Shown: positions 8,419-35,714 of the stretch, in pieces
Numbering within the stretch: position 1 is the stretch's first letter
Layout of the letters: each line of letters starts with the position of its first letter
Assembly (NCBI GenBank): GCA_965603355.1
Contig: CBFDCQ010000001.1
Coordinates: forward strand, 106,350-170,349
DNA from: an uncultured bacterium
Lineage (GTDB): Bacteria > Hydrogenedentota > CAZGCA01 > CBFDCQ01
DNA: 64,000 nt
Reading direction: 5' to 3'
The notes under the pieces: model-generated
Seen by the model: only the letters and a program-made list of their open reading frames with translations
The model's database searches: none
Told to the model about the DNA's origin: nothing
Program-made: the position numbers and the translations under genes

Positions 8419-8431
8419 ACACGCCGTCCCG

Positions 8432-8731: not shown

Positions 8732-8756
8732 GCAGTGCACCTCCTTTCCGTTAGCT

Positions 8757-9341
8757 TCAGCCTGTCCGTCCTAGAATCTTTCCGATCGCCTCCGCGAGCT
8801 CTTCCGCTCTCTGCGACCCAATCATTATATGTCTGCCGGTTCCATAGTTCAACCGCACGCCGCGGTCACCGCTCACGTTATATGCTCTTCCTCCCCGGCC
8901 CCCCTTGATACCCCAACCACCGTACTCGCGGATCGGCCTGTACGTCAGCGCCGCAAAGCTCTCGAGGTCATCCAGCGGTATCCTCCGAAAAGAGAGGTGA
9001 AAAGGCACCAACCGGATGTACAGCCCGTCGGAACGCACTTCCGTTATCAGCTTACAGAAAGCGAAAAGGGCGATGATTCCTAAGTGGAAGAGAATGCAAA
9101 GCGTGCCGGTTACGGCAAGCCCGGTATCCGACATCGGTCTGTCACCCCACGTTTCGCCAAACACGAGCTGCTGGACCATACCCCAAACGAACAACCCGAC
9201 CGCAGCCAACACGGCAACCACAATGAGCGCCCATAACCAGCGCTGCGTGAACCGCTGCACTTCCCGGAAAACCACATCCCTCTCACCATTCATTCTCGGT
9301 CCTCCTTCGTCATTCCAATCTCGCAGTAATCCGGCCGACAA
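8757..9341 (-). CDS. membrane protein, bacterial PH-domain-like
   Basis: Two TM helices (LWALIVVAVLAAVGLFVWG, LCILFHLGIIALFAFC) are followed by a short soluble domain. Its start abuts the stop of the upstream gene at 9342, suggesting an operon. Confidence 0.5.
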   Translation of the reverse strand: MSAGLLRDWNDEGGPRMNGERDVVFREVQRFTQRWLWALIVVAVLAAVGLFVWGMVQQLVFGETWGDRPMSDTGLAVTGTLCILFHLGIIALFAFCKLITEVRSDGLYIRLVPFHLSFRRIPLDDLESFAALTYRPIREYGGWGIKGGRGGRAYNVSGDRGVRLNYGTGRHIMIGSQRAEELAEAIGKILGRTG

Positions 9342-10457: not shown

Positions 10458-10613
10458 GCCCCACCTCGTGGCTTTCGTATTCGCCCCGCAGGGAAATGTT
10501 CCCTATACTCCTATAATAATACCACTATTCTGCGGAAAATATTCGAGAAATGGGCGGAATTCTCCTACGGGCCGATATTGGGAGGCGCTGTTCCAGCCAA
10601 CGCGCCCCACGAG

Positions 10614-10695
10614 CGTCATTCCCGCGAAGGCGGGAATCCAGGAGGAAGCAAAGGGTTCATCTACGGGCGTGGTTCCCCGCCTTCGCGGGGATGAC
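10614..10695. repeat. inverted-repeat pair of two 25-nt hairpin units (GTCATTCCCGCGAAGGCGGGAATCC and its near-identical reverse complement), MITE/BIME-like
   Basis: Arm 1 is 10614-10638 and arm 2 is 10671-10695 (GGTTCCCCGCCTTCGCGGGGATGAC). Each arm contains a cccgc/gcggg hairpin and the arms are ~32 nt apart. Confidence 0.6.
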
Positions 10696-10745
10696 GACAG
10701 GGGCGGTCGCCGTGGCGACCTGGGCTCCGTTCCGGAGTGACTATA

Positions 10746-10928
10746 TGGGCAGAGCAAGCCCTGCCCCTACATTGTTGTCCGTGGATTGGGCGTCTTGTCC
10801 GACAAAACCAAGGCGGGCAGGATGCCCGCCCTACATTTGGGCGTGGCATTTTGGCGCACGCTGAACACGAGACTCGGCCCTACGGAAGGCATTTCTGACC
10901 GGCACGGGCGGTTCGCGAACCGCCCCTA
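10746..10928 (-). repeat. cluster of three REP-like elements (GTAG + GC-rich palindrome), same orientation
   Basis: Units lie at 10746-10769, 10811-10833 and 10905-10928. On the minus strand each reads GTAGGG followed by an imperfect or perfect palindrome (gggcag..ctgccc, ggcgggca..tgcccgcc, gggcggttcg/cgaaccgccc). They sit in the 500-nt spacer downstream of the FG-GAP gene. Confidence 0.65.
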
Positions 10929-10955
10929 CACCGCACTGTTCGCGGCTCGTCCTTA

Positions 10956-13772: not shown

Positions 13773-13957
13773 TGTTCTTCCCTCCGTTATTGATATAACG
13801 ACCTTGCCCCTCTTGCCGAGCCGTACAGGCTCCCTCACACTCCTAATGACGTGAAAGCGGAATTACGATCAAACAGAATGCGTTTCTTCTTGGCCCTGCC
13901 GTGCCGGAAGCCCCCAGCCGCCGCAGCCTTACAAAGAGAACCACGGTCGCGTGCGCT

Positions 13958-21759: not shown

Positions 21760-22019
21760 TGATAGTAGTGCAATCGTGAGTGGAACTTAGCTGGTAAGTA
21801 CCAGGCCCTCTCGATATCTACCGCTCTCATTACTTATTATACCTGATCCTAAGGTGTTAATTCAACCCGGAGCAGCCGGTCTCCATAGTAACAACGCACA
21901 TCTTGGACCGATTGGAGACGCAGAGATCACGTTTGACCTCGTTTTCTGATATAATTAGTGTCCGAGGTACATGGCAGATGCGGCAAACGATAATGCTGCC
22001 GGTGACAATAGGGGGCGCA

Positions 22020-22948
22020 TCATGAAAGACAGTGTCCAGAACAAGACGACGCCAGAGGTTGTCGAGGAGTTATGCAGGCAGGACTCTTACGGGCCGGTCT
22101 GGCACAAAACCAACCAGGATGTACCGATGCTGGCCGGGGACCTACTGGCCGAGATCGTTGAAGATCTCCGTGCCGTCCTGTTTCCGGGCTACTTCGGTTT
22201 TGCGGAGGTAACGCCTGAAACCATGCCCTATCATATCGGCGCAACGCTGGACAGGATCTTTCCGCGGCTTGTCGAACAGTTGCAACGCGGGATATGTTTT
22301 GCCACCGAAGCGTGCGAGCGCGAGAACCACGTAGCCTGCGAGAGTCGCGCCAGGGAGGTTGCAGCCTCGTTTATATCGAGCTTACCGCGGATCCGTCACC
22401 TGCTTTCGACGGACGTGCAATCGGCCTACGAGGGAGATCCCGCCGCAAAAGACCCGAGCGAAACCATACTGTGCTATCCCAGCATCAAGACACAGACGAA
22501 CTACCGCATCGCCCACGAGCTGTATCGATTGGGCGTACCGCTGATCCCGCGCATCATTACCGAACAGGCCCACTCAGAGACCGGTATCGACATTCATCCT
22601 GGCGCGGATATAGGCGAGCGGTTTTTCATAGATCACGGGACCGGCGTAGTCATCGGCGAGACCTGCGTGATCGGGCAGAACGTCCGTCTGTATCAAGGTG
22701 TCACCCTTGGAGCAAAAAGTCTTCCGCTGGATGAACACGGTAAACCCATAAAGGGTATCGCCAGGCACCCGATCGTGGAGGACGACGCGATCATTTACTC
22801 GGGCGCCACGATCCTCGGCCGGGTGACGATAGGCAAGGGGTCGGTTATTGGAGGTAACGTTTGGCTGACGCACAGCGTTCCGCCGGGCAGCCTGATCACG
22901 CAAAGCAGACCCTTCGAGGAACAGTTCGAGGCTGGGGCGGGCGTATGA
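22020..22948 (+). CDS. cysE: serine O-acetyltransferase
   Basis: Left-handed beta-helix hexapeptide repeats and the conserved core (IDIHPGADIGERFFIDHGTGVVIGETCVIGQNVRLYQGVTLG). The in-frame ATG at 22020 follows AGGGGG with 6-nt spacing; the ORF-track start at 21971 has an SD only 2 nt away. Confidence 0.85.
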
Positions 22949-23133
22949 TACCTGCCGTACGTCTGAAGGCGTGGATTATGAGCGGCGAAAGGCAATACCG
23001 CGCGAGTGCGTTTCGATATTCTCACACGCCAGAATGACATTGACAGAATCGGCCGTATCTGTAACCATAATGGGGCCGACGTTGGCTAACAGAGACCGGA
23101 GACTCAATAAAGCGAAACACGGGAGAAAGCTCC

Positions 23134-23979
23134 ATGTGGGATTACACTGACAAAGTCAAAGAGCATTTCAGCCACCCTCGAAACGTAGGGCTTATCGAGG
23201 AACCCGACGGTGTCGGTGAGGTCGGTTCATTGGCGTGCGGCGACGCCCTTAAGCTCACCTTCAAACTGGACGACGACGGCCGCATCGCCGACGTGAAGTT
23301 CCAGACGTTCGGGTGCGCGAGCGCCATCGCATCCTCCTCCGCCCTGACCGAGATCATCAAGGGTATGACCCTGGATGAGGCGGAAAAAGTTACCAACAAG
23401 GACATCGCCGAATACCTTGGAGGGCTGCCGGAACAGAAGATGCACTGCTCCGTAATGGGTCGCGAGGCGCTGGAAGCGGCCATCAGGAACTATCGCACCG
23501 GACAAACGGGAACACGTGAACTTGAGGGCAAGGTTGTTTGCACGTGTTTCGGTGTCACCGACAGTGAGATAGAACGGATCGTACGTGATAACAACCTGTC
23601 ATCGGTCGAGGACGTCACCAACTACTGCAAGGCCGGAGGCGGCTGTGGCGGGTGCAGGGAGGAAATCGCGAAGATTATCTCAGCCGTTCGAGGGGAACCT
23701 ATCGAGGTGGAACAACCTCAACCGCAGCCCAAGCGCATCACCAATATTCAGCGGATAAATCTGATCGAGGAGACGATCGAACGTGAGATTCGTCCACGAC
23801 TGCGCCAGGACGGCGGCGACATAGAGCTGGTGGACGTTGAGGGGAACCGCGTCCTGGTATCGTTCCGGAAAGCCTGCGCCCAGTGTCCCGCCGCCCCTTT
23901 CACGATGAAGGAGATCGTGGAAGCGCCGCTGCGCCAGTTCGTCTCGCAGGACATAGTCGTTGAGGAGGTAAAACCATGA
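23134..23979 (+). CDS. nifU: NifU (full-length: IscU-like scaffold + BFD-like [2Fe-2S] + C-terminal NifU/Nfu domain)
   Basis: N-terminus has MWDYTDKVKEHFSHPRNVG...GDALKL...CASAIASSSALTE...HCSVMG (IscU cysteines). A central CxxC...CxxC region follows, then the C-terminal ...CAQCPAAPFT motif. Confidence 0.9.
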   Translation: MWDYTDKVKEHFSHPRNVGLIEEPDGVGEVGSLACGDALKLTFKLDDDGRIADVKFQTFGCASAIASSSALTEIIKGMTLDEAEKVTNKDIAEYLGGLPEQKMHCSVMGREALEAAIRNYRTGQTGTRELEGKVVCTCFGVTDSEIERIVRDNNLSSVEDVTNYCKAGGGCGGCREEIAKIISAVRGEPIEVEQPQPQPKRITNIQRINLIEETIEREIRPRLRQDGGDIELVDVEGNRVLVSFRKACAQCPAAPFTMKEIVEAPLRQFVSQDIVVEEVKP

Positions 23980-25133
23980 GGAACGTTTACCTCGACAATA
24001 ACGCAACGACAATGGTGGCTCCCGAGGTCAGAGACGCCATGGCGCCGTTTTTCGAGGAACTATGGGGGAACCCTTCCAGCATCCATACGTTCGGCGGGCA
24101 AGTGAAACAGTACGTCGATGAAGCCCGCGCAGGTGTCGCGGCGTTGATCGGCGCCGACCCGTCGGAGATAGTCTTCACGGGTTGCGGCTCGGAAAGCGAC
24201 AACATGGCGCTGCGAGGCGCCGTGGAAGCCGCCGGAGGTTACCCTCACATTATCACTACCCGCGTCGAACATCCGGCCGTCATGACGGTATGCCGTTATC
24301 TCGGAGACCGCGGCTCCAAGCTCACGGAGCTGCGGGTGGATTCCGAAGGGCGGCTCGACCTCGACGAACTTCAAGACTCCATCGGTTCAGACACTGATAT
24401 AATAAGTATCATGTGGGCCAACAACGAGACAGGCGTGATCTTCCCTGTAGAAGAGATCGCCGAAATCGTCAAACAGGCCGGGTGCGTCATGCACACCGAC
24501 GCCGTGCAGATGGTCGGCAAGATGCCCGTTGACGTTAAGGAAACCTCGGTCGATTTGCTCTCTCTCTCTGGCCACAAACTTCATGCGCCCAAAGGGGTAG
24601 GGGCGCTTTACGTGCGAAAAGGAACGAAAGTGAATCCGCTGATCCTCGGCGGACACCAGGAGGGCGGCAAACGTGCCGGCACAGAGAATGTGCCTTATAT
24701 TGTGGGTCTGGGACGCGCCTGCGAGCTTGCGGCCGAGAACATGGAAGAGGAAAGGGTTCGCGTCAAGGCGATGCGCGACCGGCTGGAGGAGGGTATCCTC
24801 GCCAGCTGCCCGGACGTGCACGTCAACGGCGACCGCGACAACCGTCTGCCTAACACCCTGAACGTCGGGTTTGAGTTTATTGAGGGCGAAGCTATTCTCC
24901 TGATGCTCGACGAGGTTGGAATAGCCGCCTCGTCAGGTTCCGCCTGCACCTCCGGGTCCCTGGAGCCGTCGCACGTCATGCGGGCAATGGGTGTACCGTT
25001 CACGGCGGCGCACGGCTCGATCCGTTTCAGCCTGAGCAGGTACAACACGGATGATGACGTATCTCACACGCTGGAACATCTTCCGAGGATAGTGAACCGT
25101 CTGCGGGAACTGTCTCCGTTCGTGAAAGATTGA
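23976..25133 (+). CDS. nifS: cysteine desulfurase (class I, NifS/IscS-like)
   Basis: MRNVYLDNNATT...; PLP-lysine motif LSLSGHKLHAPKGVGALY; catalytic cysteine loop SSGSACTSGS. It overlaps the nifU stop by 4 nt. Confidence 0.9.
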   Translation: MRNVYLDNNATTMVAPEVRDAMAPFFEELWGNPSSIHTFGGQVKQYVDEARAGVAALIGADPSEIVFTGCGSESDNMALRGAVEAAGGYPHIITTRVEHPAVMTVCRYLGDRGSKLTELRVDSEGRLDLDELQDSIGSDTDIISIMWANNETGVIFPVEEIAEIVKQAGCVMHTDAVQMVGKMPVDVKETSVDLLSLSGHKLHAPKGVGALYVRKGTKVNPLILGGHQEGGKRAGTENVPYIVGLGRACELAAENMEEERVRVKAMRDRLEEGILASCPDVHVNGDRDNRLPNTLNVGFEFIEGEAILLMLDEVGIAASSGSACTSGSLEPSHVMRAMGVPFTAAHGSIRFSLSRYNTDDDVSHTLEHLPRIVNRLRELSPFVKD

Positions 25134-25143
25134 ACGCGCGCGT

Positions 25144-27594
25144 CTAGTCATCGTGGGGCGGCGACACGTCTACTCCGCCGCAACAAACGTTTGCCGCATC
25201 TGGTGCTGTGCAGCACGCACGGGAGTAGTCCGGCGATACTCGGCGCAGTCGTTCGACGACTTCCGGCAGGGCCCCGAGCACGTAATCTACATCTTCCTGA
25301 GTATTGTCTCGTCCCAGAGAGAATCGGATACTCGCGTGTGCCGTTGTAGGCGTGACGCCCATCGCGCGAAGAACGTGAGAAGGTTCGACCGAGCCGGACG
25401 TACATGCTGAACCGGTGGACACCGCGATACCTTTCATGTCCAGACCAATAAGAAGCGCTTCCCCCTCGGCACACTCGAAACTCATGTTGAGCATGTTAGG
25501 CAGCCGGCTCGCGACCGAACCGTTTGTCCGCACGAGATCGATCCGCTCCTTTATACCGACCTCAAGCCGATCCCGAAGCGCCGCGAGACGAGCCGACTCA
25601 GCAGCCGCATCGCTGCACGCAAGCTCGATCGCTCTGGCGAAACCGACTATCCCCGGCACGTTCTCCGTACCTGCGCGACGGTTCCGTTCCTGATACCCCC
25701 CGTGCAGCAATGGCGCGATCCGTGTGCCTTTCCTGCTGTACAGCGCGCCTACTCCTTTCGGACCATAGAGCTTGTGCGCCGATATAGTCAGCAGAGCCAC
25801 GTTGAGCCGGTTCACATCGACCGGCATCTTTCCAACAGCTTGGACGGCGTCCGTATGGAAGGCAATTCCTCTTTGCCTGGCGATATCAGCAAGATCATCA
25901 ATAGGTTGAACCGTGCCGGTCTCACTGTTTGCGAGCGTAACGGAAACCAGGGTCGTGTCCGGCGTGAGAGCTTCTCGCAAGCTTTCCGGATCGACCAGCC
26001 CGTCACCGTCAACCGGCAGATAACTTGACGAGAACTCTCTGTCTTCCAGTTCACGAAAGCAATTGAGTACCGAGTGATGTTCGATCTGGGACGTCACGAT
26101 GTGCCTGGCCCTCTTCTCGTATGCGCGGGCCGCACCCTTGACCGCCATATTGTTGCCCTCGGTTCCCCCGCTGGTGAAGTATATCTCCGTGGGATCGGCG
26201 CCGATGCAGTCTGCAACCGTGTTCCGCGCGTCCTCGACGGCCTTTCGCGCCTCCTGCCCGCAAGTATGTATGCTGGAAGCGTTGCCGAACGTGCCGGTGA
26301 AATACGGCAGCATCGCCTCCAGCACTTCTTCCCGGACGGGCGTCGTGGCTGCATGGTCCATGTACACTTTTCGCATTGTTTCTCTCCTACGTGTACAACC
26401 TATCGGGGCCGTGTCGGATTCCCCGGAGACGTAGGGGCGAGGCATGCCGCGCCCCGACAAAGCATCCATGGCTTGCGCGAGATCGTCGATCAAGTCTTCA
26501 GCGTCCTCGAGTCCCACCGAGAGTCGAACCAGCCTGTCGTTTATGCCGAGGCGGTCGCACTCTTCACGCGGATAACTCAGATGCGTCATACGCGCCGGCA
26601 ACGTTACGATGCTCTCAACGGCGCCCAGGCTCACCGCGAGCGACCAGAGCTTCACCTTTTGCAACACCCGTTTGGCAACATCTTCGTCACGCGCCAGGAA
26701 CGATACCATCGCGCCGCCGCCGGAAGCCTGTCTCGCGTGGATATCGTTATCCGGATGCGTATCGAGACCCGGGTACAACACCTGCTCCACGTCGGCTCGG
26801 TCGAGCAGCCACTCCGCGATCTGTCGCGCGCTCTCTTGCTGCACGTTCATCCTGGCTTTCAGTGTCTTCATCCCCCTCATGAGAAGCCAGCAATCGAAAG
26901 GGGAGGGGACGGCACCTACTGCGTTTTGACGAAAATGTATCTTCTTCGCCAACTTATCATCATTGACCACCGCTAATCCGGCAATGAGATCGCTGTGTCC
27001 CCCGAGGTACTTCGTAGCGCTGTGAATCACAATGTCCGCGCCGGCCTCCAGAGGCCGCTGAAGATAGGGCGACATGAACGTATTGTCCACCATAAGAAGG
27101 ATGTCCTTCTCGCGCGATATCGCCGACAACTCCCCCAAGTCGGTGATCTTCATCATCGGATTCGACGGGGTCTCGATCAGGATCGCGCGCGTCCTGTCGC
27201 TCAGCGCCGTCTCGACCGCCGCAATGTCCCCGGTATCCACCAGGCTGAACTCTATGCCGAAGCGCGGGAACAATCTGGTCAGGATCCTGTACGTGCCTCC
27301 GTACAACCCCTCGGTGGCTATGACATGGTCGCCGCTCTCCAACAACATCAAGCATGTTGAGATAGCCGCCATACCAGAGGAGAACGCGAATCCGCACTCG
27401 CCGCCCTCCAACAAGGCGATGTACTTCTCAAGCACGTCGCGTGTCGGATTGCCGGTGCGCGAGTAGTCGTATCCACCTTGCTGATCGGGGCTCGTGCGCT
27501 TGAACGTCGAGACCTGATATATCGGTGTACTCAGCGCCCCCGTATGCGGACACGTGCTACCGGGATGGTGTATTAGTCTCGTACCTATTCTCAT
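25144..27594 (-). CDS. in-frame fusion ORF: N-terminal Cys/Met-metabolism PLP enzyme (cystathionine beta-lyase / gamma-synthase family) + C-terminal cysteine desulfurase (IscS/NifS-like)
   Basis: Residues 1-~385 match the MetC/MetB family (YSRTGNPTRDVLEKYIALLEGGE, SATKYLGGHSD, RLSVGLEDAEDLIDDL). Residues ~407-816 are a complete class-I desulfurase (MRKVYMDHAATT..., SAHKLYGPKGVGALY, STGSACTSGS). An internal AGGAGAG-N5-ATG sits at the junction (~26376-26392) and +1 / +2 frame stops occur in the linker, so a 1-nt indel would resolve it into two genes. Confidence 0.7.
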   Translation of the reverse strand: MRIGTRLIHHPGSTCPHTGALSTPIYQVSTFKRTSPDQQGGYDYSRTGNPTRDVLEKYIALLEGGECGFAFSSGMAAISTCLMLLESGDHVIATEGLYGGTYRILTRLFPRFGIEFSLVDTGDIAAVETALSDRTRAILIETPSNPMMKITDLGELSAISREKDILLMVDNTFMSPYLQRPLEAGADIVIHSATKYLGGHSDLIAGLAVVNDDKLAKKIHFRQNAVGAVPSPFDCWLLMRGMKTLKARMNVQQESARQIAEWLLDRADVEQVLYPGLDTHPDNDIHARQASGGGAMVSFLARDEDVAKRVLQKVKLWSLAVSLGAVESIVTLPARMTHLSYPREECDRLGINDRLVRLSVGLEDAEDLIDDLAQAMDALSGRGMPRPYVSGESDTAPIGCTRRRETMRKVYMDHAATTPVREEVLEAMLPYFTGTFGNASSIHTCGQEARKAVEDARNTVADCIGADPTEIYFTSGGTEGNNMAVKGAARAYEKRARHIVTSQIEHHSVLNCFRELEDREFSSSYLPVDGDGLVDPESLREALTPDTTLVSVTLANSETGTVQPIDDLADIARQRGIAFHTDAVQAVGKMPVDVNRLNVALLTISAHKLYGPKGVGALYSRKGTRIAPLLHGGYQERNRRAGTENVPGIVGFARAIELACSDAAAESARLAALRDRLEVGIKERIDLVRTNGSVASRLPNMLNMSFECAEGEALLIGLDMKGIAVSTGSACTSGSVEPSHVLRAMGVTPTTAHASIRFSLGRDNTQEDVDYVLGALPEVVERLRRVSPDYSRACCTAPDAANVCCGGVDVSPPHDD

Positions 27595-27625
27595 TAACGG
27601 CCTCCACGATGTTCGTGCTAACCCG

Positions 27626-28555
27626 TTACCTTTGCTGGAACAGCCACGTCGAGAGGTATCTCTCGCCGGTGTCCGGCAAAATGACTACGATCATTGCTCC
27701 GGCATTTTCCGGGCGTTTGGCAACCTCCAGCGCCGCGTGTGCGGCCGCACCGGACGAAATCCCAACAAGAAGTCCTTCCTCCTTGGCGAGTCGGCGTGCC
27801 GCGTTACCCGCGTCCTCGTCCTTGACCTGTATCACCTCGTCAATCAGCTCCGGCCGCAACACGTCGGGGATGAACCCCGCTCCTATACCTTGAATCTTGT
27901 GCGGTCCAGGTTGTCCGCCGGATAGCACCGGCGACCCTTCCGGCTCAACCGCTATAGCCTTGAACTCCGGCTTCCTCGGCTTTATGGCCTCGGCGATACC
28001 GGTGACAGTTCCACCTGTGCCGACTCCCGCCACAAGGATGTCCACCTTGCCGTCGGTATCCCTCCATATCTCTTCAGCGGTCGTCTCACGATGTACGAGC
28101 GGATTAGCCGGATTCTTGAACTGCTGAGGCATGATCGCGTTCGGCGTTTCCTCGACGAGCTCCTCAGCTTTCCTCACTGCGCCGGGCATCCCCTCAGGTC
28201 CGGGAGTCAGGACGAGCTCAGCGCCAAGCACACGCAGAAGGTGTCTGCGTTCAACGCTCATCGTCTCGGGCATCGCCAGGATCAGCTTGTACCCCCGTGC
28301 GGCACAAACGAACGCCAACGCTATACCGGTGTTCCCGCTTGTGGGTTCTATGACCACCGTATCCTTCTTTATCGAACCTTCCTCTTCAGCCGCGTCTATC
28401 ATCGAGACACCTATCCTGTCCTTCACGCTGCCGAGCGGGTTGAACGATTCAAGCTTGGCCACTAACGGCGCCTCCAATCCTGCACTGAACCTGCTCAGCC
28501 GAACCAGGGGAGTGTTCCCTATTGTTTGCGTCACATCGTCGTATATTGTGCCCAT
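27626..28555 (-). CDS. cysK: cysteine synthase A (O-acetylserine sulfhydrylase)
   Basis: PLP-lysine motif '[11 protein letters not shown]', '[10 protein letters not shown]', glycine-rich loop '[10 protein letters not shown]'. 309 aa. Confidence 0.9.
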
Positions 28556-28583
28556 CGTCGCCTCCGTTTCACCGTTTCCACAG

Positions 28584-29030
28584 TCAGATGTAGTACATGC
28601 TCTGACCTACACCATCAAGCTTCTCCTGCTGTCGCTCAACCAAGTCCTGCAGTGTAGTCGACTCCAACACATCCCTCATCGCATTCCTGACATTCATCCA
28701 CACGTCGCGCGCCACGCACGACTTCTCCAACCGGCAGACTTCAGGGTCGTCCACGCAGTCCACCGGCGCCAGTGAACCGTCCAGCGCCGCGTGTATCTCG
28801 CTAAGCTTCATCTCGGACGGCGGTCGCGCCAACAGGTACCCGCCGTGCCGACCGCGCACGCCGAGCACAAGACCTCTCGCCTTGAGCGCCGCCACGAGAT
28901 GCTCCATATACTTCTCGGATACCTCTAATCGTCCGGCTATGTCGCGCAGGCGTAACTGACCGCGTCCGTGATTCAGCGCCAGTTCGAGCATTAACCTGAC
29001 GCCATAACGCACTTTAGTTGTGATCTTCAT
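28584..29030 (-). CDS. Rrf2 family transcriptional regulator (IscR-like, three-Cys cluster ligands)
   Basis: N-terminal wHTH ([13 protein letters not shown]...[28 protein letters not shown]) and a C-x6-C-x5-C motif ([14 protein letters not shown]). It is the first gene of the rrf2-cysK-fusion operon, with 28-nt and 31-nt spacers. Confidence 0.85.
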
Positions 29031-29053
29031 CCCGACAACCTTACGAAAACCCT

Positions 29054-29103
29054 AATCCCTACTAGCTTGGTAGGATTATAGCGCCTTTTTCCCACTTTGT
29101 CAA
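29054..29103 (-). promoter_or_regulatory. perfect consensus sigma-70 promoter (TTGACA-N17-TATAAT) with an overlapping palindromic operator, upstream of the rrf2 gene
   Basis: On the minus strand, TTGACA is at 29103-29098, a 17-nt spacer follows, and TATAAT is at 29080-29075. The inverted repeat AATCCCTAC-N7-GTAGGATT (29054-29077) overlaps the -10 and the predicted +1. AAGG is followed by ATG at 29030. Confidence 0.6.
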
Positions 29104-29237
29104 GCCGGCTCCTGTTTCGGCGGGGATGGAGCGGATCGATGACGGCCGTTGCGACCACATTAACGGAAATGTTGACCCACTGCGGTTATGAAAGCGGGTC
29201 GGCCCTGACTTCGCGAATCGCCGGCTGTTCGAGGTAA

Positions 29238-30473
29238 CTAGAAGGAGGATTCCAGAAGTGCCGATTCCGCTTGACGAATGATCTCATCCCACTGCAGACC
29301 TTGCTCTGTGGGGGCAACGGCGGACGTGCCGGTACGTATCGCAGCGGTTTCGGCAATGCAACGCTCGCAAACGTTACATGATTCCAACTTCGATCTCAGT
29401 CTCTTCTCAACAGTCTGCGCGCCTTTGGCGTCGGTGTTCGGCAGAAGAACGATGAACCCGTTCTCTCCGTAACGAGCGGCCGTATCGATCTCACGTATCT
29501 CGTGCCACATTACTTGTGTGCACTTCTCGCGTACCGGTGCTTCAACATCCTTCAAAGGAACTCTAGTGTCGTCGGGTGCGGGTTCCAGGCTGACAATGAG
29601 GCACGACACGGGCTCTGTAAACCGGCCCGCCCGCTTAGCTTCAACCCGGACGCGTTTCTGGAACTCATCGTAGCTGACGAAGTTGTCGTAACCGCGCCAG
29701 GCGTCCGGCACAGGTGGCGCCGGAGCGGCTGCCGTTGTGCGGACGGCACCCGCGGTGCGGACGGTCCCCGGTATACAGGTCTGCTTGATCCCTTTCTCGA
29801 CATCCTCAATCACGCGGCACGCTTCGGGTCCATAGCAGTACTTAAGGGTCCTGTCAGATATGTCAACCGAGATTATCGGGTGACGCCGCGCAGCTATAAT
29901 GCCGGCGATCCAGTAGCCAACGCTCGTTACGGCGAGCACGAACAAGAGTCTTATGCACCCCGTGATCATTCCAGCGTTCTTCGCGCCGAAATCGCCCAGC
30001 CTCTCGCACAACGCATTGACGAAACCGAAGGCGTTCATGCGCGGGCTGACCGCGTCTATGATCACGAATGCCGCCGATGTGATCGCCACGCTAACTGCCG
30101 TCTTGATCGCAAGCCGGTGCCTGTTCAGCAACTGCTGCCAGCGGGAAGGATACAGTCTGCGCCAGGCAATCTGTACCAGACTCTTGGTTACCTCAGAGAA
30201 TGCCTCTCGTTCGAGCCCCGCATTAACCTTTTCGGTCGCATCGGCGCGACGATGGAAATACGTGCCGGTAACCAGCAAAGGATGTGGTCGCGGTTTCTCG
30301 TCAACGGCAACGAAGCTGTAGGCGCCGTCTAGCTCTGAAGTGTATATCCGGAACTCCTCCAGGAGCGGGAGGTCACTGGTGTCCTCCTGCCTATACCTGA
30401 GCAGGGTGAGACGCCCATGGAGATTGTCCGGCAAGGTGAACGTTCTTAGCTGAGCCAATCTCTCTTCGCTCAC
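29238..30473 (-). CDS. membrane protein with a degenerate GGDEF (diguanylate-cyclase-like) C-terminal domain
   Basis: Central TM helices (AVSVAITSAAFVIIDAV, ITGCIRLLFVLAVTSVGYWIAGIIAA). The C-terminal domain has the GGDEF fold pattern but 'RYGENGF' replaces RYGGEEF, so it is probably catalytically inactive. Confidence 0.55.
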   Translation of the reverse strand: MSEERLAQLRTFTLPDNLHGRLTLLRYRQEDTSDLPLLEEFRIYTSELDGAYSFVAVDEKPRPHPLLVTGTYFHRRADATEKVNAGLEREAFSEVTKSLVQIAWRRLYPSRWQQLLNRHRLAIKTAVSVAITSAAFVIIDAVSPRMNAFGFVNALCERLGDFGAKNAGMITGCIRLLFVLAVTSVGYWIAGIIAARRHPIISVDISDRTLKYCYGPEACRVIEDVEKGIKQTCIPGTVRTAGAVRTTAAAPAPPVPDAWRGYDNFVSYDEFQKRVRVEAKRAGRFTEPVSCLIVSLEPAPDDTRVPLKDVEAPVREKCTQVMWHEIREIDTAARYGENGFIVLLPNTDAKGAQTVEKRLRSKLESCNVCERCIAETAAIRTGTSAVAPTEQGLQWDEIIRQAESALLESSF

Positions 30474-30628: not shown

Positions 30629-31765
30629 TCAGAACCCCATCAACCCGCAGCACCGCGCGCAGATCGGGAACATGCCGTGCTCCCTGAGCGCGTTGCGGAA
30701 CCGCCAGTACGGCTCGCCGTGGAAGATCTCGAGGATGCTCTCCTCCTTGATGTTGCCGGCCACATAGTCCGGATAGTCGCGGCACGTTGCCACGTCGCCG
30801 TTGGGCATCACCTCGGCAACAAGCCAGGGCGCCACGCACTTGTCGTAACCGAAAAAATTCTGAGGTTCCACGTAGTAGCGGGGTATCTCCTCGATCTTCA
30901 GTTCCGGCAGGAACAGGTATGGAAAGCTGTACCGCTTCCCTCGGATCCTTCTAACGCTCTCCTGCACGGCGGCGACATCTATTCCGCCGACGGGAATAAG
31001 ATAACCCTTCCATGCTTTAGGCTCGCATCCCAGCACGCGTTGCATAATCTCGCAATGTCTCTGACCGATCTCCTCCGTCGTGAACCAGGAGTAGTACACG
31101 ATGACACAATCCGCCCCAAGCTCCTCAGCCACATCGAAGATCTTATCGAGCACGTGGGCGTTGTCCCTTGAAACCGTGGACAGGATCATAATGTAGGGTT
31201 TTCTCTTCTTCCGGTCCGCCCTGACCGTCTTCAGCCTTTCAATACTCCCGGCCAGCGCTTCGAAGCACCCGGGCATTCCGCGAATTTCGTCGTGGATCGC
31301 CGGCGGACCGTCCACCGACAGCATCAGCGCATCCCATCCCGTATCGACGATCTCCTCCGCGTGCTCCTCCAACCTCGTCGCGTTCGTGACAACCGCAACG
31401 TTGAAATCCTTCTCTTTCATGTAACCTACCAACGGCATCAGGTCCTTGTACAGAAAAGGTTCCCCTCCCCAGATGTAGATGAACGGCTTGATCCGGGCAA
31501 CATCGTCCACCATCCTGCGGTACACGTCCAGCGGAACCGTTTCCCGAATTACCTCGGTAGGTTTCCCGAAGTTGTACCCGCTTTCACCCCACTGTCCGCA
31601 CATCTTGCATCGTAGGTTGCAGGCGTTGGTGATCTTCATGCTGATCTGGCGCAGCTTAGCTTTCGAGCCATCGAAATCGCGATCGAAACGCGTGAAGAAC
31701 TTGCGTCTCGCAAGGTCCCGGATCGCCCGGTACAGAACGTCCGGTGTTGACGTCATCTTCCACAT
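30629..31765 (-). CDS. radical SAM / SPASM-domain protein
   Basis: CxxxCxxC (CNLRCKMC) cluster motif. The C-terminal Cys-rich SPASM/twitch region is (CVAPW...CRDYPDYVAGN...CARCCG). The start is taken at MWKMTSTP (31765); the ORF-track start at 31891 would overlap the upstream GT2 gene by 110 nt. Confidence 0.75.
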   Translation of the reverse strand: MWKMTSTPDVLYRAIRDLARRKFFTRFDRDFDGSKAKLRQISMKITNACNLRCKMCGQWGESGYNFGKPTEVIRETVPLDVYRRMVDDVARIKPFIYIWGGEPFLYKDLMPLVGYMKEKDFNVAVVTNATRLEEHAEEIVDTGWDALMLSVDGPPAIHDEIRGMPGCFEALAGSIERLKTVRADRKKRKPYIMILSTVSRDNAHVLDKIFDVAEELGADCVIVYYSWFTTEEIGQRHCEIMQRVLGCEPKAWKGYLIPVGGIDVAAVQESVRRIRGKRYSFPYLFLPELKIEEIPRYYVEPQNFFGYDKCVAPWLVAEVMPNGDVATCRDYPDYVAGNIKEESILEIFHGEPYWRFRNALREHGMFPICARCCGLMGF

Positions 31766-31781
31766 GAAACTCAACGGAATT

Positions 31782-33002
31782 CTACTGTACACGGCTATCC
31801 TCTTCCGGGGCAGGCGTTGTCCGCCTGTCACGCTCTGTTTTCTGTACTGCCACCACGCGCCCGTCGCCATCCAACCTGTATGTCGCATCACCCCACCTGA
31901 TGCTGCTCATGAACGCGGTTTTCACCAGACTGAACGCACCCATCAACTGCAACACCGGGGTCAGGACAAACCACCGAAGAACGCTCTGTCCGTCACGGCA
32001 GGTCAGTTTCAACGACGTGTGTGCACCCATTACAACAAGCGAGAAGCCCAGACATATGAACCCAAGAGGTCTAAGAGGTTCACAGAACAAACCCGCGACG
32101 ATCAGGGGTCCGGCCGCTAACATTAGAAGAGCGGTCGGAATGTGTGCGGCCAGTGCGGCAAACCAGAAGGGGCGGACGCAGAACTTGAGAAACAGAATCT
32201 GTCGCGTGAGCCACTCGACCACCTCGCGCACGGATGACACTGCGTTGTTCGACACCACCAGACACCGAGGATCGTAAACCACACTCATCCTCTTCCGACG
32301 CAACAGGTGCAACAGAGTCATATCGTCCACGACCGTCCGGCTCCATTCGTCCGCTACCCCCAATTTCTCAAATGTGCTCGATCGAATCGCCGTAGCGCCT
32401 CCCCACACGGCCCTCGTCGAAGTGCAGGACATAAACGCCCCCTGATACGCTACCACCATCGAGTGCAGCGTGCCCGCAAGAGTCCGACGAGCCGGGGTGA
32501 GCCAGCGAAAACCACTGGCGACCGAAACGTCGTCCGCAGTCAGAGAGCTCACCAGCATGGACAGCCATTCTCGAGGTGGGCGAATGTCCGCGTCGCAGAA
32601 CACAAACAGCTCGCTTCCGGAGTCCTGCGCAAGTCCTTTCAGAAGGTTATGGTTCTTCTGCCCGCACGACACCGCCGGACCGGCGACCACATGGCGACAA
32701 TGAGGGTGACGACGCACCACACGCTCGATTGCCCGGATGGCGGGATCCTCGTAGCTTTCAGATATGTATGTGACGGTGAAATTCTCGTACTCCTGGCACG
32801 CCACGGCTTCCAGGTTGTCCGCAAGCTCCGGGAACGCGCCCTTACAGGGCACGAACACACCCGCGCGCGCAGGACGCGCCGACCGCGCCGGCCGACTACG
32901 CTTCTCGAACAGCACGTGCACATAGAATAGATTTCGCAAACCGGGGACAATGTGCACGAGCGCGAGAACGAATGTTCCTATCAGAAAGTAGTGCCAGTAC
33001 AC
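31782..33002 (-). CDS. membrane-anchored family-2 glycosyltransferase (ceramide glucosyltransferase / GT21-like)
   Basis: N-terminal TM, then the GT-A motifs (VTYISESYEDP, FVFCDADIRPPREW; DAD). C-terminal TM helices are typical of ceramide glucosyltransferase / HpnI-like enzymes. Confidence 0.7.
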   Translation of the reverse strand: MYWHYFLIGTFVLALVHIVPGLRNLFYVHVLFEKRSRPARSARPARAGVFVPCKGAFPELADNLEAVACQEYENFTVTYISESYEDPAIRAIERVVRRHPHCRHVVAGPAVSCGQKNHNLLKGLAQDSGSELFVFCDADIRPPREWLSMLVSSLTADDVSVASGFRWLTPARRTLAGTLHSMVVAYQGAFMSCTSTRAVWGGATAIRSSTFEKLGVADEWSRTVVDDMTLLHLLRRKRMSVVYDPRCLVVSNNAVSSVREVVEWLTRQILFLKFCVRPFWFAALAAHIPTALLMLAAGPLIVAGLFCEPLRPLGFICLGFSLVVMGAHTSLKLTCRDGQSVLRWFVLTPVLQLMGAFSLVKTAFMSSIRWGDATYRLDGDGRVVAVQKTERDRRTTPAPEEDSRVQ

Positions 33003-33307
33003 GCTCCGCTCTCTTCCGAATTAACGCCGTTCTTGTCAGAAAGGCCTAATAACCCCCAAGAATCCGGTATCTCTTATAGCACACTTGAGATTAAGAAGTC
33101 GATAGGGTCACGTGCGAGGGTGCTCAAAACGCGTGCCCATGCAGCAGGGCGCAGCACGCACGCGAAACTGGACAGCACGAAAAGACTTAGACTAGACCGC
33201 AATCTTTATAGCGGCGGTTCAAGGCGGACAGGCAGGCTGACTAAGACAGATTTCAGTGTCACCCGCGCCCGTTGGCAGCCCCGCCCGCAGCGCTTCCGGC
33301 TACGCGG

Positions 33308-33523
33308 TCACCCACCGAGGCTCAGGACCGCGCACTTTCCCGTCAGCCGCTGAAACCAAGCGCAGTGTTCTCCAAGACAGTGGCCTGTAGCCGCCTCGGC
33401 AAAGTCCGCTCCTTCCTCCGTGAAGTCGGCGATATCTCCCTCCTGTTTCTGGACTTCCTTTTCGCTGCACAGGAGTAGTGCCCTTACTATGCTGAAGAAC
33501 GGACAGGCTTTGCTCGTTACCAT
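33308..33523 (-). CDS. small Cys-containing hypothetical protein (71 aa) with a strong Shine-Dalgarno site
   Basis: The minus-strand sequence reads GAAAGGAGGGGGTAGA-ATG, i.e. AAGGAGG then a 7-nt spacer. It has 5 Cys (CPFF, C19, CLGEHC, C64). It is the only well-initiated ORF in the 875-nt spacer between the GT2 and LtaS-like genes. Confidence 0.4.
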   Translation of the reverse strand: MVTSKACPFFSIVRALLLCSEKEVQKQEGDIADFTEEGADFAEAATGHCLGEHCAWFQRLTGKCAVLSLGG

Positions 33524-33878
33524 TCTACCCCCTCCTTTCGTGCCCGCGCCTATCCTTCCCCCACCATTCTACGCCCGAAACGCCTCTAATCGCAAGAAGA
33601 AAATGGCTCGGGAGTTTCCGTTCCGCCCGGTCCCCGCCGGTTTCCGCAAGAGGGCTGGACTTCCCGGCAGCGTTTTGCATGAAACCTGCCGATCTGATAT
33701 ACTCTGGTTGGTTTTGGCTAACTGAGACGGCACGACGCGCATGGAATGCCGCGATATCATGGGATCTTCGCTCTATAGTCGTTATTTCACACGCTCTGTA
33801 AGGGGATCGCCCGCATGAATCGGGCTGAGAATGTTGCATGCGTTGGACATGCCGAAACGGAGCGTCAGTGGCAACTGA

Positions 33879-35714
33879 GTGGATAGCGCAATGAAGCTGA
33901 AAAGACTTAGTGCAACCCTGTCCGTTGGGATAATCTTCGGTTTTGTGGTGGGCGGTATCGTTTCCTTTGACTTCGTCCGATCCAACCGCTATGTCCAGTA
34001 TGACATGCTCAGGTCGGTCTTTCTCAGCTTTCAGGAATCATTGAACAGATGGGTGTTGTGGTTCGTTGTTATCTCGGTTGTTCTGTCACTTCTCGCGCTC
34101 GTTGCAACGGTTGTAGCGAGACGTGTACTGAAATCGTTTCGCTCAGCTGCGGCTGGGATTGACGGCCAGGAATATCTGCTGAAATTTCATTTGGTCTGTC
34201 TCGTCTGCTCCATCTTCTTTTTCTGCGGCGGATGGGCGATCAATCATTACTGGCTGCCTTCCAGACTTCACCCCCTAAGTTTGTTGGGCGACGCGGGTAT
34301 CCTGCTTCTGACGATCCTGATGTGGCGGGCATTGCTGAAGGCAAACTGGGGGAATCTGATCCGGATTTTGAGGGGAACAGCGTCCATTCTGGCGGTTTCC
34401 GTACTCGTTCTAAACCTCTCGATAATGGTCGAAGGAAAGATGCACCGCCCAACCGGGCCCAACGTGATCCTGATAGTGGTAGACACTTTGAGGGCTGACC
34501 ATCTCAGTTGTTATGGATACAACAGAAACACCACACCCGTCATTGATGAGCTGTCAGAACAGTCGGTACTCTTCAGAAACGCCATTTCGTCCGCTCCATG
34601 GACCACCCCATCTGTAGTGACGACATTCACGTCGCAGTATCCGGCCGCGGTCGGCATTGAAGCGGAGCCGATAGTGTTGGGCAATGAGTTTCTGACCTTG
34701 GCAGAGATACTCAAGGGCGGCAACTATGACACTCAAGGCATAGTCTCTCATATCCTTGTCTCCTCCACCTTGGGGTTCGATCAAGGATTCAACTCCTACG
34801 ATGAGGAAAATGCAAGAGGAGAAGACCACATCTCTTCCCCATCCATCACAGAAAAGGCTATCTCCTATATAGAGAGGCGCGGGAACGACAAGTTCTTCCT
34901 GTTCCTGCATTACTTCGACCCGCACCATTCATACATCCTACATGAAGACTACGACTATTACCCGGACTATGACGGTGCGTTGTACAGCGGCCAGAACGTG
35001 GAAGAATTAAGGAAAAAGGCGCCGGACATGGCGGCCGATGATATTGAGTTTGTGAAGGCGTTATACGATTCCGAAATTGCATTTACAGACGGCTACATAG
35101 GAGTCCTCTTCAACAAGCTGAAGGATTTGGGGCTATATGATGACACGCTGATCGTCGTTACTGCCGATCACGGAGAAGAGTTCCTGGAGAGGGGAGATTA
35201 TTGGATCGGGCACGCCAGGAAACTCTATCAAGAACAGATTCACGTTCCCCTAATCATAAAGCCGGCGGGGGAACGCAGACAGGAAATCATGGAAGAATAT
35301 GTGAGTCTCATGGACTTGATGCCCACCATTGTCGATAGCGCGGACTTGACCATTCCTGCCAGCTACCAACACGAAGGGGAGACTCTCCGTATGGACGATG
35401 AGCGCCAGCCGAGAGACAGTGTAATAGTCAGCGACACGAAGAGTTTCTCCGATCTGCGGTCGCTGATATTGAACGGATGGAAGCTGATCTACGACGCAGA
35501 GACGGATTCAAGAGCACTCTATGATTTGAGAAAAGACCCGGCAGAATCCGGCAATGTCGCGATGGAGAACCGGGAGTTTCTGACGGAAATGGAGGCAATC
35601 CTGCGAGATTGGAACGACCACGTCAATTCGGGAAAATCACAGACGGACGCGCGGCTGCCCAAGTTCACGGAAGAACAGCTGGAGCGCCTGCGGGGATTAG
35701 GTTATGCCCAGTGA
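33879..35714 (+). CDS. membrane-anchored sulfatase-fold (alkaline-phosphatase superfamily) enzyme, LtaS / phosphoglycerol-transferase-like with a Thr nucleophile
   Basis: Five N-terminal TM helices precede an extracytoplasmic sulfatase-fold domain (NVILIVVDTLRADHLSCYGY...SSAPWTTPSVVT). The FGly motif C/S-x-P-x-R is replaced by W-T-T-P-S, i.e. Thr at the nucleophile position and no Arg. A metal-binding DHGE is present. Confidence 0.75.
   Translation: MDSAMKLKRLSATLSVGIIFGFVVGGIVSFDFVRSNRYVQYDMLRSVFLSFQESLNRWVLWFVVISVVLSLLALVATVVARRVLKSFRSAAAGIDGQEYLLKFHLVCLVCSIFFFCGGWAINHYWLPSRLHPLSLLGDAGILLLTILMWRALLKANWGNLIRILRGTASILAVSVLVLNLSIMVEGKMHRPTGPNVILIVVDTLRADHLSCYGYNRNTTPVIDELSEQSVLFRNAISSAPWTTPSVVTTFTSQYPAAVGIEAEPIVLGNEFLTLAEILKGGNYDTQGIVSHILVSSTLGFDQGFNSYDEENARGEDHISSPSITEKAISYIERRGNDKFFLFLHYFDPHHSYILHEDYDYYPDYDGALYSGQNVEELRKKAPDMAADDIEFVKALYDSEIAFTDGYIGVLFNKLKDLGLYDDTLIVVTADHGEEFLERGDYWIGHARKLYQEQIHVPLIIKPAGERRQEIMEEYVSLMDLMPTIVDSADLTIPASYQHEGETLRMDDERQPRDSVIVSDTKSFSDLRSLILNGWKLIYDAETDSRALYDLRKDPAESGNVAMENREFLTEMEAILRDWNDHVNSGKSQTDARLPKFTEEQLERLRGLGYAQ

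Follow-up and report, generated by a model that had tools for sequence, protein, structure and literature searches.

Organization of the locus

The window (the whole 64,000-nt stretch of DNA that we analyzed) carries on its minus strand a gene for an Rrf2-family regulator, cysK, and a single open reading frame (ORF) that starts with ATG at position 27594, runs down to position 25144, and encodes 816 amino acids. The parts of this ORF and the surrounding features are listed in Table 1. A cysE-nifU-nifS cluster converges on these genes from the plus strand, and its nifS ends 10 nt from the stop codon of the ORF, where an earlier note on this DNA had placed it. NifU_proper scored 364 bits in this cluster (cutoff, 273), and NifS scored 602 bits (cutoff, 531). 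The Rrf2 regulator could be assigned at the superfamily level only, with NCBIfam scores of 127.6 bits for CymR (cutoff, 195) and 103.7 bits for IscR (cutoff, 207.55). The promoter-like site upstream of it likely drives the entire rrf2-cysK-lyase-desulfurase operon, judging from its match to the consensus.

Table 1. Positions of genes and sequence features discussed in the text
Feature	Position in window	Strand	Remarks
Sigma-70-type promoter-like site, TTGACA-17-TATAAT	29075..29103	-	12/12 consensus; upstream of the Rrf2 gene
Rrf2-family regulator, CymR/IscR-like, 148 aa	28584..29030	-	Pfam Rrf2, E = 8e-38
cysK, O-acetylserine sulfhydrylase (cysteine synthase A), 309 aa	27626..28555	-	TIGR01139, 462.6 bits > 350.95
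Cystathionine gamma-lyase/MccB-like PLP enzyme	26458..27594	-	Codons 1 to 379; complete product in all other assemblies
Codon 380	26455..26457	-	TCG (Ser) in window; TAG in 14/14 other assemblies with aligned coverage
Second private base	26449	-	Coding strand C in window, A in 15/15 others
GC-rich palindrome	26431..26458		Begins just 5' of the lyase stop codon; both private bases in its coding-strand 5' arm
Spacer of the split form, 78 nt	26377..26454	-	Read in window as linker residues 381 to 406; no in-frame stop
Shine-Dalgarno-like AGGAGAG	26382..26388	-	5 nt 5' of the desulfurase ATG; same in all other assemblies
Second NifS-type cysteine desulfurase, 410 aa from M407	25144..26376 (stop included)	-	TIGR03402, 550.7 bits > 530.75
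Convergent cysE-nifU-nifS	21971..25133	+	Serine acetyltransferase 21971 to 22948, NifU 23134 to 23979, NifS 23976 to 25133

Two complete enzyme domains in one ORF

The earlier note had proposed that the ORF joins two complete PLP-dependent domains, and Pfam bore this out, with both matches near full profile length. Cys_Met_Meta_PP covers residues 5 to 376 (E = 1e-144; profile positions 2 to 380 of 381), and Aminotran_5 covers residues 410 to 772 (E = 8e-92; profile positions 1 to 371 of 371). On the coding strand, the junction between them reads ...GCC ATG GAT GCT TTG TCG GGG CGC GGC ATG CCT ... CGT AGG AGA GAA ACA ATG CGA AAA. The in-frame AGGAGAG-N5-ATG described in the note lies at 26388 to 26374, and its ATG (26376 to 26374) is M407 of the ORF. 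Stops in the other two frames, likewise predicted to fall inside the linker, were found as TAG at 26402 to 26400 and TAG at 26389 to 26387. The linker also contains four 4-nt homopolymer runs.

The first domain aligns end to end with the 377-residue PDB chain 7d7o_A (residues 1 to 376 on 1 to 376), and its K195 lies in SATK (motif HSATKYLGGHSD, read from the translation), an S-x-T-K motif that we take to mark the PLP lysine in the PF01053 family. The best NCBIfam model was NF005810 (bifunctional cystathionine gamma-lyase/homocysteine desulfhydrase) at 520.1 bits, and every score against the other NCBIfam equivalogs was likewise under its cutoff. Because 520 bits is short of the 594-bit cutoff of NF005810, we assign no specific reaction (gamma-lyase, beta-lyase, or gamma-synthase) and refer to this half as the lyase. 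It is preceded by cysK and by the gene for an Rrf2/CymR-like regulator, and the MccB/YrhB enzymes of Firmicutes likewise belong to a cysteine regulon under CymR-CysK control; CymR and CysK form a cysteine-sensing repressor complex in Bacillus subtilis as well as Staphylococcus aureus (PMC2869319). Unlike the hosts of MccB/YrhB, the host here belongs to an uncultivated non-Firmicute lineage, and we saw no MccA-type partner gene adjoining the lyase. By GroEL, the closest named match of this lineage is a Verrucomicrobiae MAG, with Hydrogenedentota and Abyssubacteria next at about 78%. The stand-alone length of about 377 to 400 amino acids is not found in the window, where the ORF runs 437 codons further.

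The second domain retains the PLP lysine and the catalytic loop SACTSG of NifS-type (class I) desulfurases (TIGR03402; IscS/NFS1 structures such as 1p3w). Its PLP lysine, K202 (K608 of the fusion), and its catalytic cysteine, C325 (C731), occupy invariant columns in alignment A2. All homologues start at the residue that aligns with M407. This desulfurase is a paralogue of the nifU-linked NifS encoded 10 nt away, with 52% identity. Its C-terminal tail of 25 to 30 residues, with two CC pairs, was seen in no species but this one and its sister species.

Other assemblies of the species encode two separate proteins

To compare the window with its own species, we used 15 independent metagenome assemblies, which share 99.6 to 100% identity with it and align without gaps. 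All of them have TAG at codon 380, and their gene calls give a lyase of 379 aa and, from M407, a desulfurase of 410 aa; the fused architecture occurred in 0 of the 15. One of them, contig L098, begins at codon 380 itself and also reads TAG. The junction in the 15 distinct assemblies is TTG TAG GGGCGAGGCATGCCTCGCCCC TAC, and the combination TCG...CGC occurs in the window alone. The lyase consequently ends ...AMDAL before a stop at codon 380, two residues short of the end after ...DALSG that the earlier note had expected. The 379-aa lyase was called at every locus that covers the full gene (L081 to L089 and L091 to L096).

Two look-ups by product gave the same picture. Identical CysK proteins led to 20 contigs, and each of these that reaches the junction encodes a 379-aa lyase followed by a 410- or 405-aa desulfurase; this search is unbiased with respect to the junction, which it covered in nine assemblies. 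A look-up by the 410-aa desulfurase found exactly this product called on 17 contigs, a count biased to split loci, as a fused locus would not give that product. The 17 calls from M407 agree with the suggestion in the note that the internal Shine-Dalgarno sequence and ATG are those of a separate gene; they are simply the desulfurase gene's own ribosome-binding site and start codon. On record, the 816-aa product stands on one contig, and the 379-aa and 410-aa products stand on 11 contigs each. An exact scan of JGI metagenome contigs with a degenerate junction pattern gave no match, in a collection that evidently lacks the JGI contig L082.

Two private substitutions in one arm of a palindrome

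The difference at codon 380 comes down to position 26456, where the plus strand has G in the window and T in 14 of 14 others. The second private base, at 26449, lies 7 nt 3' of it, in what is noncoding spacer in the split form. Both changes are A to C on the coding strand (ORF nucleotides 1139 and 1146). Contigs L082 (12,930 nt) and L083 (10,735 nt) match the window everywhere except at these two positions, with 0 gaps. Over the 60,471 positions covered by at least three other assemblies, the window has three private bases: 26449, 26456, and 62074, the last being a synonymous C/T difference. Because the closest relative, sister species L126, keeps TAG and A at the two variable positions, the state in the window is derived. 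With regard to programmed read-through of TAG or its decoding as pyrrolysine, TAG ends 8 of the 35 long ORFs within the window, which speaks for an ordinary stop codon.

In all other assemblies the palindrome is a perfect 28-mer, GTAGGGGCGAGGCATGCCTCGCCCCTAC, predicted to fold in RNA into a 12-bp hairpin with a CAUG loop. The two private changes break this symmetry, leaving the window version 89% complementary, and they raise the minimum free energy from -40.9 to -32.8 kcal/mol (z-score, -2.1 in other assemblies versus +0.8 in the window). The 22-nt core is the same in L126, and the next-longest perfect palindrome in the window is 20 nt. We considered the palindrome as a REP-like repeat or ectopic template and rejected this, as it is present in the window in a single copy at up to 3 mismatches. 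We infer a role for the hairpin at the RNA level. The placement of two changes in one arm indicates a process tied to the hairpin, be it cellular or a matter of sequencing, more than random point mutation.

Related species keep the genes apart

Comparison of orthologous loci also spoke against the suggestion in the earlier note of a genuine fusion: besides the stop in 15 of 15 conspecific assemblies, the lyase and desulfurase genes are separate in all four related species (L126, L127, L129, and L131). In order of falling desulfurase identity (85, 84, 74, and 72%), the lyase genes of these relatives end in TAG, TAG, TAG, and TGA, and their spacers measure 77, 60, 64, and 13 nt. The lyase product is 378 to 381 aa long across these species and the other assemblies. 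In L126, the spacer carries a frame-breaking 1-nt indel and two in-frame TAG codons, and the 57 nt outside the palindrome core align with ours at 12 mismatches and 1 gap. Mismatches between species within the two genes are dominated by third codon positions (28/16/84 and 32/29/127 at the first, second, and third positions). We found no sign of coding constraint in the linker, in which strong conservation is limited to the 22-nt core of the palindrome.

The locus is an ordinary operon of four presumably cotranscribed genes, for an Rrf2/CymR-like regulator, CysK, the MccB-like lyase, and a second NifS-type desulfurase. This rrf2-cysK-lyase-nifS2 arrangement is conserved in five species, and an intercistronic GC hairpin is present in the two closest. 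Together with cysE-nifU-nifS, the operon would provide cysteine and then convert it to persulfide for Fe-S cluster assembly.

Searches for the same architecture

No protein combining a lyase with Aminotran_5 was present among the best 120 matches from 5.8 billion clustered proteins, nor, in an exhaustive search, among the best 150 from 1.84 billion representative proteins, top-match lists that could miss very distant fusions with both halves only about 30% identical. The long two-stretch matches listed were lyase-lyase tandems or proteins joining a lyase to a class-I/II aminotransferase. Word-index matches of about 760 aa that carried both PF01053 and PF00266 proved on rescanning to be lyase-lyase tandems with only weak cross-family matches. 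Adjacency of lyase and desulfurase was found in 0 of 80 related GTDB loci, a collection from which the source species is absent. Sixteen GTDB loci had matches of 2.2 to 2.5 kb, and BLASTP of their ORFs resolved them into lyase-lyase or desulfurase-desulfurase pairs.

Natural fusions of Cys/Met-metabolism PLP enzymes do exist, as lyase-lyase proteins of about 760 aa and as a 781-aa lyase plus class-I/II aminotransferase, in several clusters, so the lyase fold does tolerate being joined to another PLP domain. None of these includes an Aminotran_5 desulfurase and, unlike the one-contig 816-aa ORF, they recur on many contigs.

Origin of the fused ORF

We conclude, with a probability of about 0.92, that the fused ORF, a derived form confined to this contig, is a stop-loss allele that one strain really carries or else an error in the consensus at the hairpin-forming palindrome, and neither an evolved bifunctional enzyme nor a frameshift. 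In the state typical of the species, the lyase ends at TAG-380, and the 78-nt spacer opens with the strong GC hairpin and closes with the Shine-Dalgarno sequence and ATG of the desulfurase. On the one contig, a change of TAG to TCG, accompanied by an A-to-C change 7 nt downstream in the same palindrome arm, lets the ORF run through 816 codons. Stop loss leads to the merger because both genes happen to lie in one frame, with no in-frame stop between them in the spacer. Chance has a part in this: spacers of 78 nt shuffled at the same composition lacked an in-frame stop in 45% of cases, and one adjacent pair in three is in a common frame, which gives about 15% of gene pairs of this kind that a single stop loss would merge. 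One stop-codon change could thus fuse roughly one in seven pairs of neighboring genes that have the same orientation and a short, GC-rich spacer. The ORF resembles stop-loss read-through chimeras in its one altered stop-codon base, in-frame neighbors, stop-free spacer, and retained internal ribosome-binding site and start, but, unlike plain chimeras of this kind, it has a further substitution, and both fall in one arm of a palindrome that is conserved.

Two other origins have little to recommend them. An evolved bifunctional enzyme, with channeling of its new cysteine into the formation of persulfide, is very improbable: the two activities follow each other in sulfur flow, five related species have the genes side by side in the same orientation, and both domains are complete, but the architecture is absent from 15 of 15 assemblies, four relatives, 80 GTDB loci, and the top matches of two protein searches. 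Moreover, the linker evolves in the manner of noncoding DNA: in the sister species, an indel breaks its frame and in-frame stops interrupt it. It still contains the hairpin and the ribosome-binding site. As for the proposal in the note that a 1-nt assembly indel merged two genes lying in different frames, the merger stands and the indel does not. The 4-nt homopolymer runs of the linker and the TAG that either alternative frame meets before the ATG would suit an indel, but its likelihood is practically nil, given that every junction-spanning locus aligned to the window with 0 gaps, the change is a TAG-to-TCG substitution, and the split-form gene starts are already in a common frame (8180 - 6962 = 1218 = 3 x 406).

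We put at about even the odds that the two bases are a sequencing, consensus, or assembly error, in which the source truly reads TAG...CGA and A was twice miscalled as C (T as G on the plus strand) at the entry to the strong GC-rich hairpin. Both private bases fall in a single arm of a palindrome that, if perfect, would be the window's longest, 28 of 64,000 nt, a placement with a random probability of about 4e-4. The clustering as such we rejected as proof of error, because clustered private variants are common in the population: 72 neighboring pairs occur among 166 variable sites, and tracts private to one assembly are frequent. That three low-coverage contigs of other assemblies end within 3 nt of the palindrome edge suggests a site that is hard to sequence or assemble, although the 15 other assemblies, several at 3 to 8x coverage, read it correctly. 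Inverted repeats and GGC motifs trigger sequence-specific errors on Illumina instruments, and A to C is cited in the introduction of the same study among the commonest miscalls (PMC3141275). A GGC inside the palindrome matches this context, and the sequence-specific-error model is plausible for the two bases, but such miscalls copy the preceding one or two bases (PMC3141275), which predicts C at neither site. Selection should act against a stop loss that lengthens a normally tetrameric enzyme by 437 residues, and such a loss would be unlikely as a dominant allele. Against an error, the window also has at least one private single-nucleotide difference of ordinary appearance, the synonymous one at 62074.

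A real private stop-loss allele, in which one strain carries TCG...CGC through a single multibase mutation or a very short imported tract, seems to us somewhat short of an even bet. The population is rich in strain-level microdiversity and in short tracts of clustered variants, and the window is a genuine distinct genotype, because it has a variant cluster at 16277 to 16287 in common with one other assembly. Both halves are intact with their catalytic residues, and the 78-nt spacer is open in frame. Were the allele real, it would encode an 816-aa lyase-linker-desulfurase protein, and the weakened hairpin with the intact Shine-Dalgarno sequence and ATG would still yield some free desulfurase. 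Against it, the state was found on one contig only, with 0 of 15 other assemblies sharing it; it is derived relative to the sister species and probably deleterious. Hairpin-templated mutation normally raises the symmetry of a palindrome. The changes in the window lower it, opposite to that usual direction.

Implications for annotation

This contig should not be used to annotate, or to pass on, a "bifunctional" enzyme of 816 aa, as the species encodes two ordinary enzymes. More generally, single-genome fusions that keep an internal ribosome-binding site should be compared with sibling assemblies before channeling hypotheses are built on them. There is a slight chance that the TCG allele is real in one strain and offers a natural experiment, in which the lyase, a producer of cysteine, is tethered by an unstructured linker of 27 residues to a desulfurase that consumes cysteine and is also made in free form. 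An active chimera would then be the first fusion of a lyase to NifS, and would show a bifunctional enzyme just as it arises, through one stop-codon change. The chimera already bridges two unrelated families in one protein cluster at 90% identity. Separately, MAFFT placed lyase homologues onto the desulfurase half in alignment A3, a misalignment that arises because both are fold-type-I PLP enzymes.

An open reading frame merged in one assembly

The minus-strand ORF translates to 816 aa and holds two complete pyridoxal phosphate (PLP) enzyme domains, Cys_Met_Meta_PP (the lyase, residues 5 to 376) and Aminotran_5 (the desulfurase, nifS2, residues 410 to 772), as the earlier note had read from the sequence. 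Its in-frame internal Shine-Dalgarno (SD) motif and ATG, and its stop codons in the other frames of the linker, were also found in place. On the coding strand, the junction reads ...ATG GAT GCT TTG TCG GGG CGC GGC ATG CCT CGC CCC TAC ... CGT AGG AGA GAA ACA ATG CGA AAA, and the internal start, M407, falls on residue 1 of NifS/IscS homologues when these are aligned. Some database desulfurase homologues carry N-terminal extensions, which show no kinship to one another and look like over-called starts.

Features of the locus and of the window, in window coordinates
Feature	Position	Strand	Remark
816-aa ORF	27594-25144	-	
Internal SD motif, AGGAGAG	26388-26382	-	then 5 nt, then in-frame ATG at 26376 (M407)
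TAG, other frame of linker	26402-26400	-	
TAG, other frame of linker	26389-26387	-	
28-nt palindrome	26431-26458		GTAGGGGCGAGGCATGCCTCGCCCCTAC in all other assemblies
20-nt palindrome	10906-10925		GGGCGGTTCGCGAACCGCCC, perfect, GC-rich; ~30 nt past the 3' end of the gene for the 960-aa FG-GAP/TSP3 protein; terminator-like, without obvious T tract
nifS2 C-terminal tail (P0402)	25144-25230	-	two Cys-Cys pairs, SRACCTAPDAANVCCGGVDVSPPHDD
cysK	27626-28555	-	
Putative sigma-70 promoter, perfect consensus	29075-29103	-	TTGACA, 17 nt, TATAAT (12/12); ~45 nt upstream of Rrf2/CymR-like gene

The CysK protein encoded upstream of the lyase recurs residue for residue on 20 contigs of independent metagenome assemblies (ENA ERZ250734xx, JGI 3300007900, Logan SRR26215688). 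Nine of the 10 contigs listed reach the junction, and in all nine two genes are called, one for a PF01053 protein of 379 aa, the other for a PF00266 protein of 410 aa (405 aa in one case). The 410-aa product from M407 was found on 17 contigs, with six assemblies beyond the CysK set. The 816-aa product is known from one contig only (180,366 nt) and the 379-aa and 410-aa products from 11 contigs apiece; a separate look-up for contigs encoding the fused product found none.

The junction sequence is uniform across 15 distinct assemblies, and the alignments that cross it are free of gaps. Ungapped comparison revealed C in the window and A in all others at ORF nt 1139 (26456) and 1146 (26449), codon 380 being TCG in the window and TAG elsewhere. 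Two same-species contigs, L082 (12,930 nt) and L083 (10,735 nt), match the window exactly except at these bases. Given gap-free alignments and a private base in codon 380, the merge reflects a stop-codon substitution; the earlier proposal of two genes merged by a 1-nt indel was therefore right about the genes and wrong about the mechanism. In the split form the two start codons lie 1,218 nt apart (3 x 406), the genes already share a frame, and none of the 26 spacer codons is an in-frame stop. This open spacer is unremarkable, since 45% of shuffled spacers of equal composition are open in frame and the chance that two genes share a frame is one in three.

We tiled the remaining window with three more look-ups and piled all matching contigs onto it, which gave 60,471 positions a coverage of three or more other assemblies (median, 6). 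Among these positions, the window stands alone at three bases only, 26449, 26456, and 62074, the last a synonymous C/T change. Variation among assemblies of the species was strongly clustered (72 neighbouring pairs among 166 variable sites), as examined at 26640-27250 and 16277-16850 against L088, L115, and others; the L088 lyase gene has 13 differences inside ~120 nt. This pattern suggests short recombination tracts or strain mixing in assemblies.

Split genes in related species and a hairpin conserved in the closest

Using the 410-aa desulfurase as the query, we found orthologues in four related species at 85% (L126), 84% (L127), 74% (L129), and 72% (L131) identity. All four contigs keep the Rrf2-PALP(cysK)-lyase-desulfurase order, always with lyase and desulfurase as two genes; the lyase stops are TAG, TAG, TAG, and TGA, and the spacers 77, 60, 64, and 13 nt, respectively. 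The comparison of orthologous loci named in the earlier note thus gave split genes in four of four species and, together with the TAG at codon 380 in 15 other assemblies, leaves a genuine lyase-desulfurase fusion unsupported. Whether the two bases are an error or a real allele, the species as a whole does not have the fusion.

In L126, the closest species, the lyase ends ...AMDAL-TAG as in the split form, and the 22-nt palindrome core is identical. Both variable positions are A, so the C/C state of the window is derived. Between L082 and L126, the lyase genes are 88.8% identical (mismatches at codon positions 1/2/3, 28/16/84) and the desulfurase genes 82.3% (32/29/127). The spacer comparison revealed a 1-nt indel, two in-frame TAGs, and strong conservation only in the palindrome core, where all 21 nt agree; the other 57 nt hold 12 mismatches and the gap. 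On this sequence comparison, the linker is non-coding DNA carrying a conserved hairpin, not a protein linker. The L127 spacer has a different hairpin, CGGGCA-TCT-TGCCCG.

Long matches of the full-length query among 5.8 billion clustered proteins were considered as fusions, and on rescanning proved to be lyase-lyase tandems. When 1.84 billion 50%-identity representatives were searched exhaustively with HMMER, no lyase-NifS fusion stood among the top 150. These were single-domain proteins, a pair of lyase-lyase tandems (P0121, P0141), one extended desulfurase (P0122), and one protein joining a lyase to a class I/II aminotransferase (P0200). A lyase-NifS fusion with at least 35% identity in each half would be expected to score above them; more distant ones could have been missed. 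Lyase-desulfurase adjacency was absent from 80 related loci of GTDB species representatives. Lyase-lyase tandems of ~755-800 aa (P0005-P0014, P0121, P0141) and 781-aa lyase-aminotransferase proteins (P0200, P0040, P0042) each recur in several clusters and sources and, unlike the 816-aa ORF, look like genuine fusions of the fold. As a warning, the chimera already bridges two unrelated families in one 90%-identity cluster, that of P0272, whose 13 members mix 379-aa lyases with 410-aa desulfurases and whose representative is a desulfurase. Beyond this warning, the analysis yields a correction of the fusion reading and a conserved rrf2-cysK-lyase-nifS2 operon with an intercistronic hairpin.

Consensus error or private allele

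In all other assemblies, the lyase stop codon sits within a perfect 28-nt palindrome, predicted to fold as RNA into a 12-bp G+C-rich hairpin with a CAUG loop; it would exceed every other perfect palindrome in the window, of which the longest has 20 nt. Its coding-strand 5' arm holds both window-private bases, each of which breaks one pair, and the minimum free energy (MFE) of the 108-nt junction segment is -40.9 kcal/mol in the other assemblies (z-score, -2.1) versus -32.8 kcal/mol in the window (z-score, +0.8). Three low-coverage contigs of independent assemblies (L090, L098, L099) stop no more than 3 nt from the palindrome's outer edge (window equivalent, 26455-26461), a site at which assembly or sequencing seems to break off.

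We give a probability of about 50% to a consensus error at the two bases. The hairpin that takes both changes is the strongest in the window, and contigs of other assemblies break there. Inverted repeats and GGC motifs are known to provoke Illumina sequence-specific errors, and the introduction of the paper on these errors names A-to-C as one of the most frequent miscalls (PMC3141275). An allele that adds 437 residues to a tetrameric enzyme would also be unlikely to be dominant. However, the dephasing model predicts a copied preceding base rather than C, and 15 other assemblies read the site cleanly. Short variant clusters private to one assembly are moreover abundant in this population, and the window has other genuine-looking strain variants. 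A real stop-loss allele private to one strain is a serious contender, at somewhat under even odds. Were it real, ribosomes would run through the spacer into the desulfurase frame, yielding the 816-aa chimera, while, with the SD and ATG intact and the hairpin weakened, some desulfurase translation could still start independently.

Gene content and surroundings

Over its full length, the lyase aligns with PDB 7d7o_A, a bifunctional cystathionine gamma-lyase/homocysteine desulfhydrase of 377 aa, and it has its PLP lysine (K195) within SATK; because its score with the best NCBIfam model, NF005810, is below the cutoff (520 versus 594), we assign it no precise reaction. The desulfurase scores above the NifS equivalog cutoff (550.7 versus 530.75), keeps the PLP lysine and catalytic cysteine, and is 52% identical to the nifU-linked NifS. 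CysK scores above its cutoff; the Rrf2 regulator is closest to CymR and IscR, both below cutoff. In Firmicutes, the genes for cysteine formation are repressed by CymR acting together with CysK (PMC2869319), and the conversion of methionine to cysteine uses MccB as its cystathionine gamma-lyase (PMC2566862). From gene content and these roles, the locus most likely couples, at the operon level, the supply of cysteine (by CysE, CysK, and the lyase) to its desulfuration and to the loading of an Fe-S scaffold (by NifU and the two NifS). A full consensus promoter before an autoregulator-type gene, as found here, is unusual.

The Rrf2-cysK-lyase-nifS2 operon is kept in five species (L081-L131; window equivalent, 21971-29030). 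Convergent nifS-nifU-cysE is present in three of the four related contigs, hence four of five species; on the L126 contig the sequence runs out within the gene at the nifU position, and L131 has a 1,403-aa PQQ/methyltransferase/malectin protein instead. In the window, the plus-strand nifS does end at 25133, 10 nt from the ORF stop codon at 25144, as noted earlier, which leaves no room for terminators between the convergent genes. A terminator scan of 24900-29400 gave a single site, which lies within cysK on the plus strand, and nothing close to the 10-nt gap. The two-Cys-Cys tail of nifS2, which might be a persulfide-relay or metal-binding tail, is shared by the sister species (SRRCCTVPGGANVCCEE) and absent in orthologues at 84% identity or less.

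Farther out, regions 3401-18028 and 30629-35714 encode giant secreted proteins (CARDB, 1,020 aa; FG-GAP/TSP3, 960 aa; beta-helix/PKD, 1,356 aa) and a sulfatase near a radical-SAM/SPASM enzyme, a sequence content that suggests an uncultivated anaerobic polysaccharide degrader. By GroEL, a Verrucomicrobiae MAG is the nearest named relative, followed by Hydrogenedentota and Abyssubacteria at ~78%.
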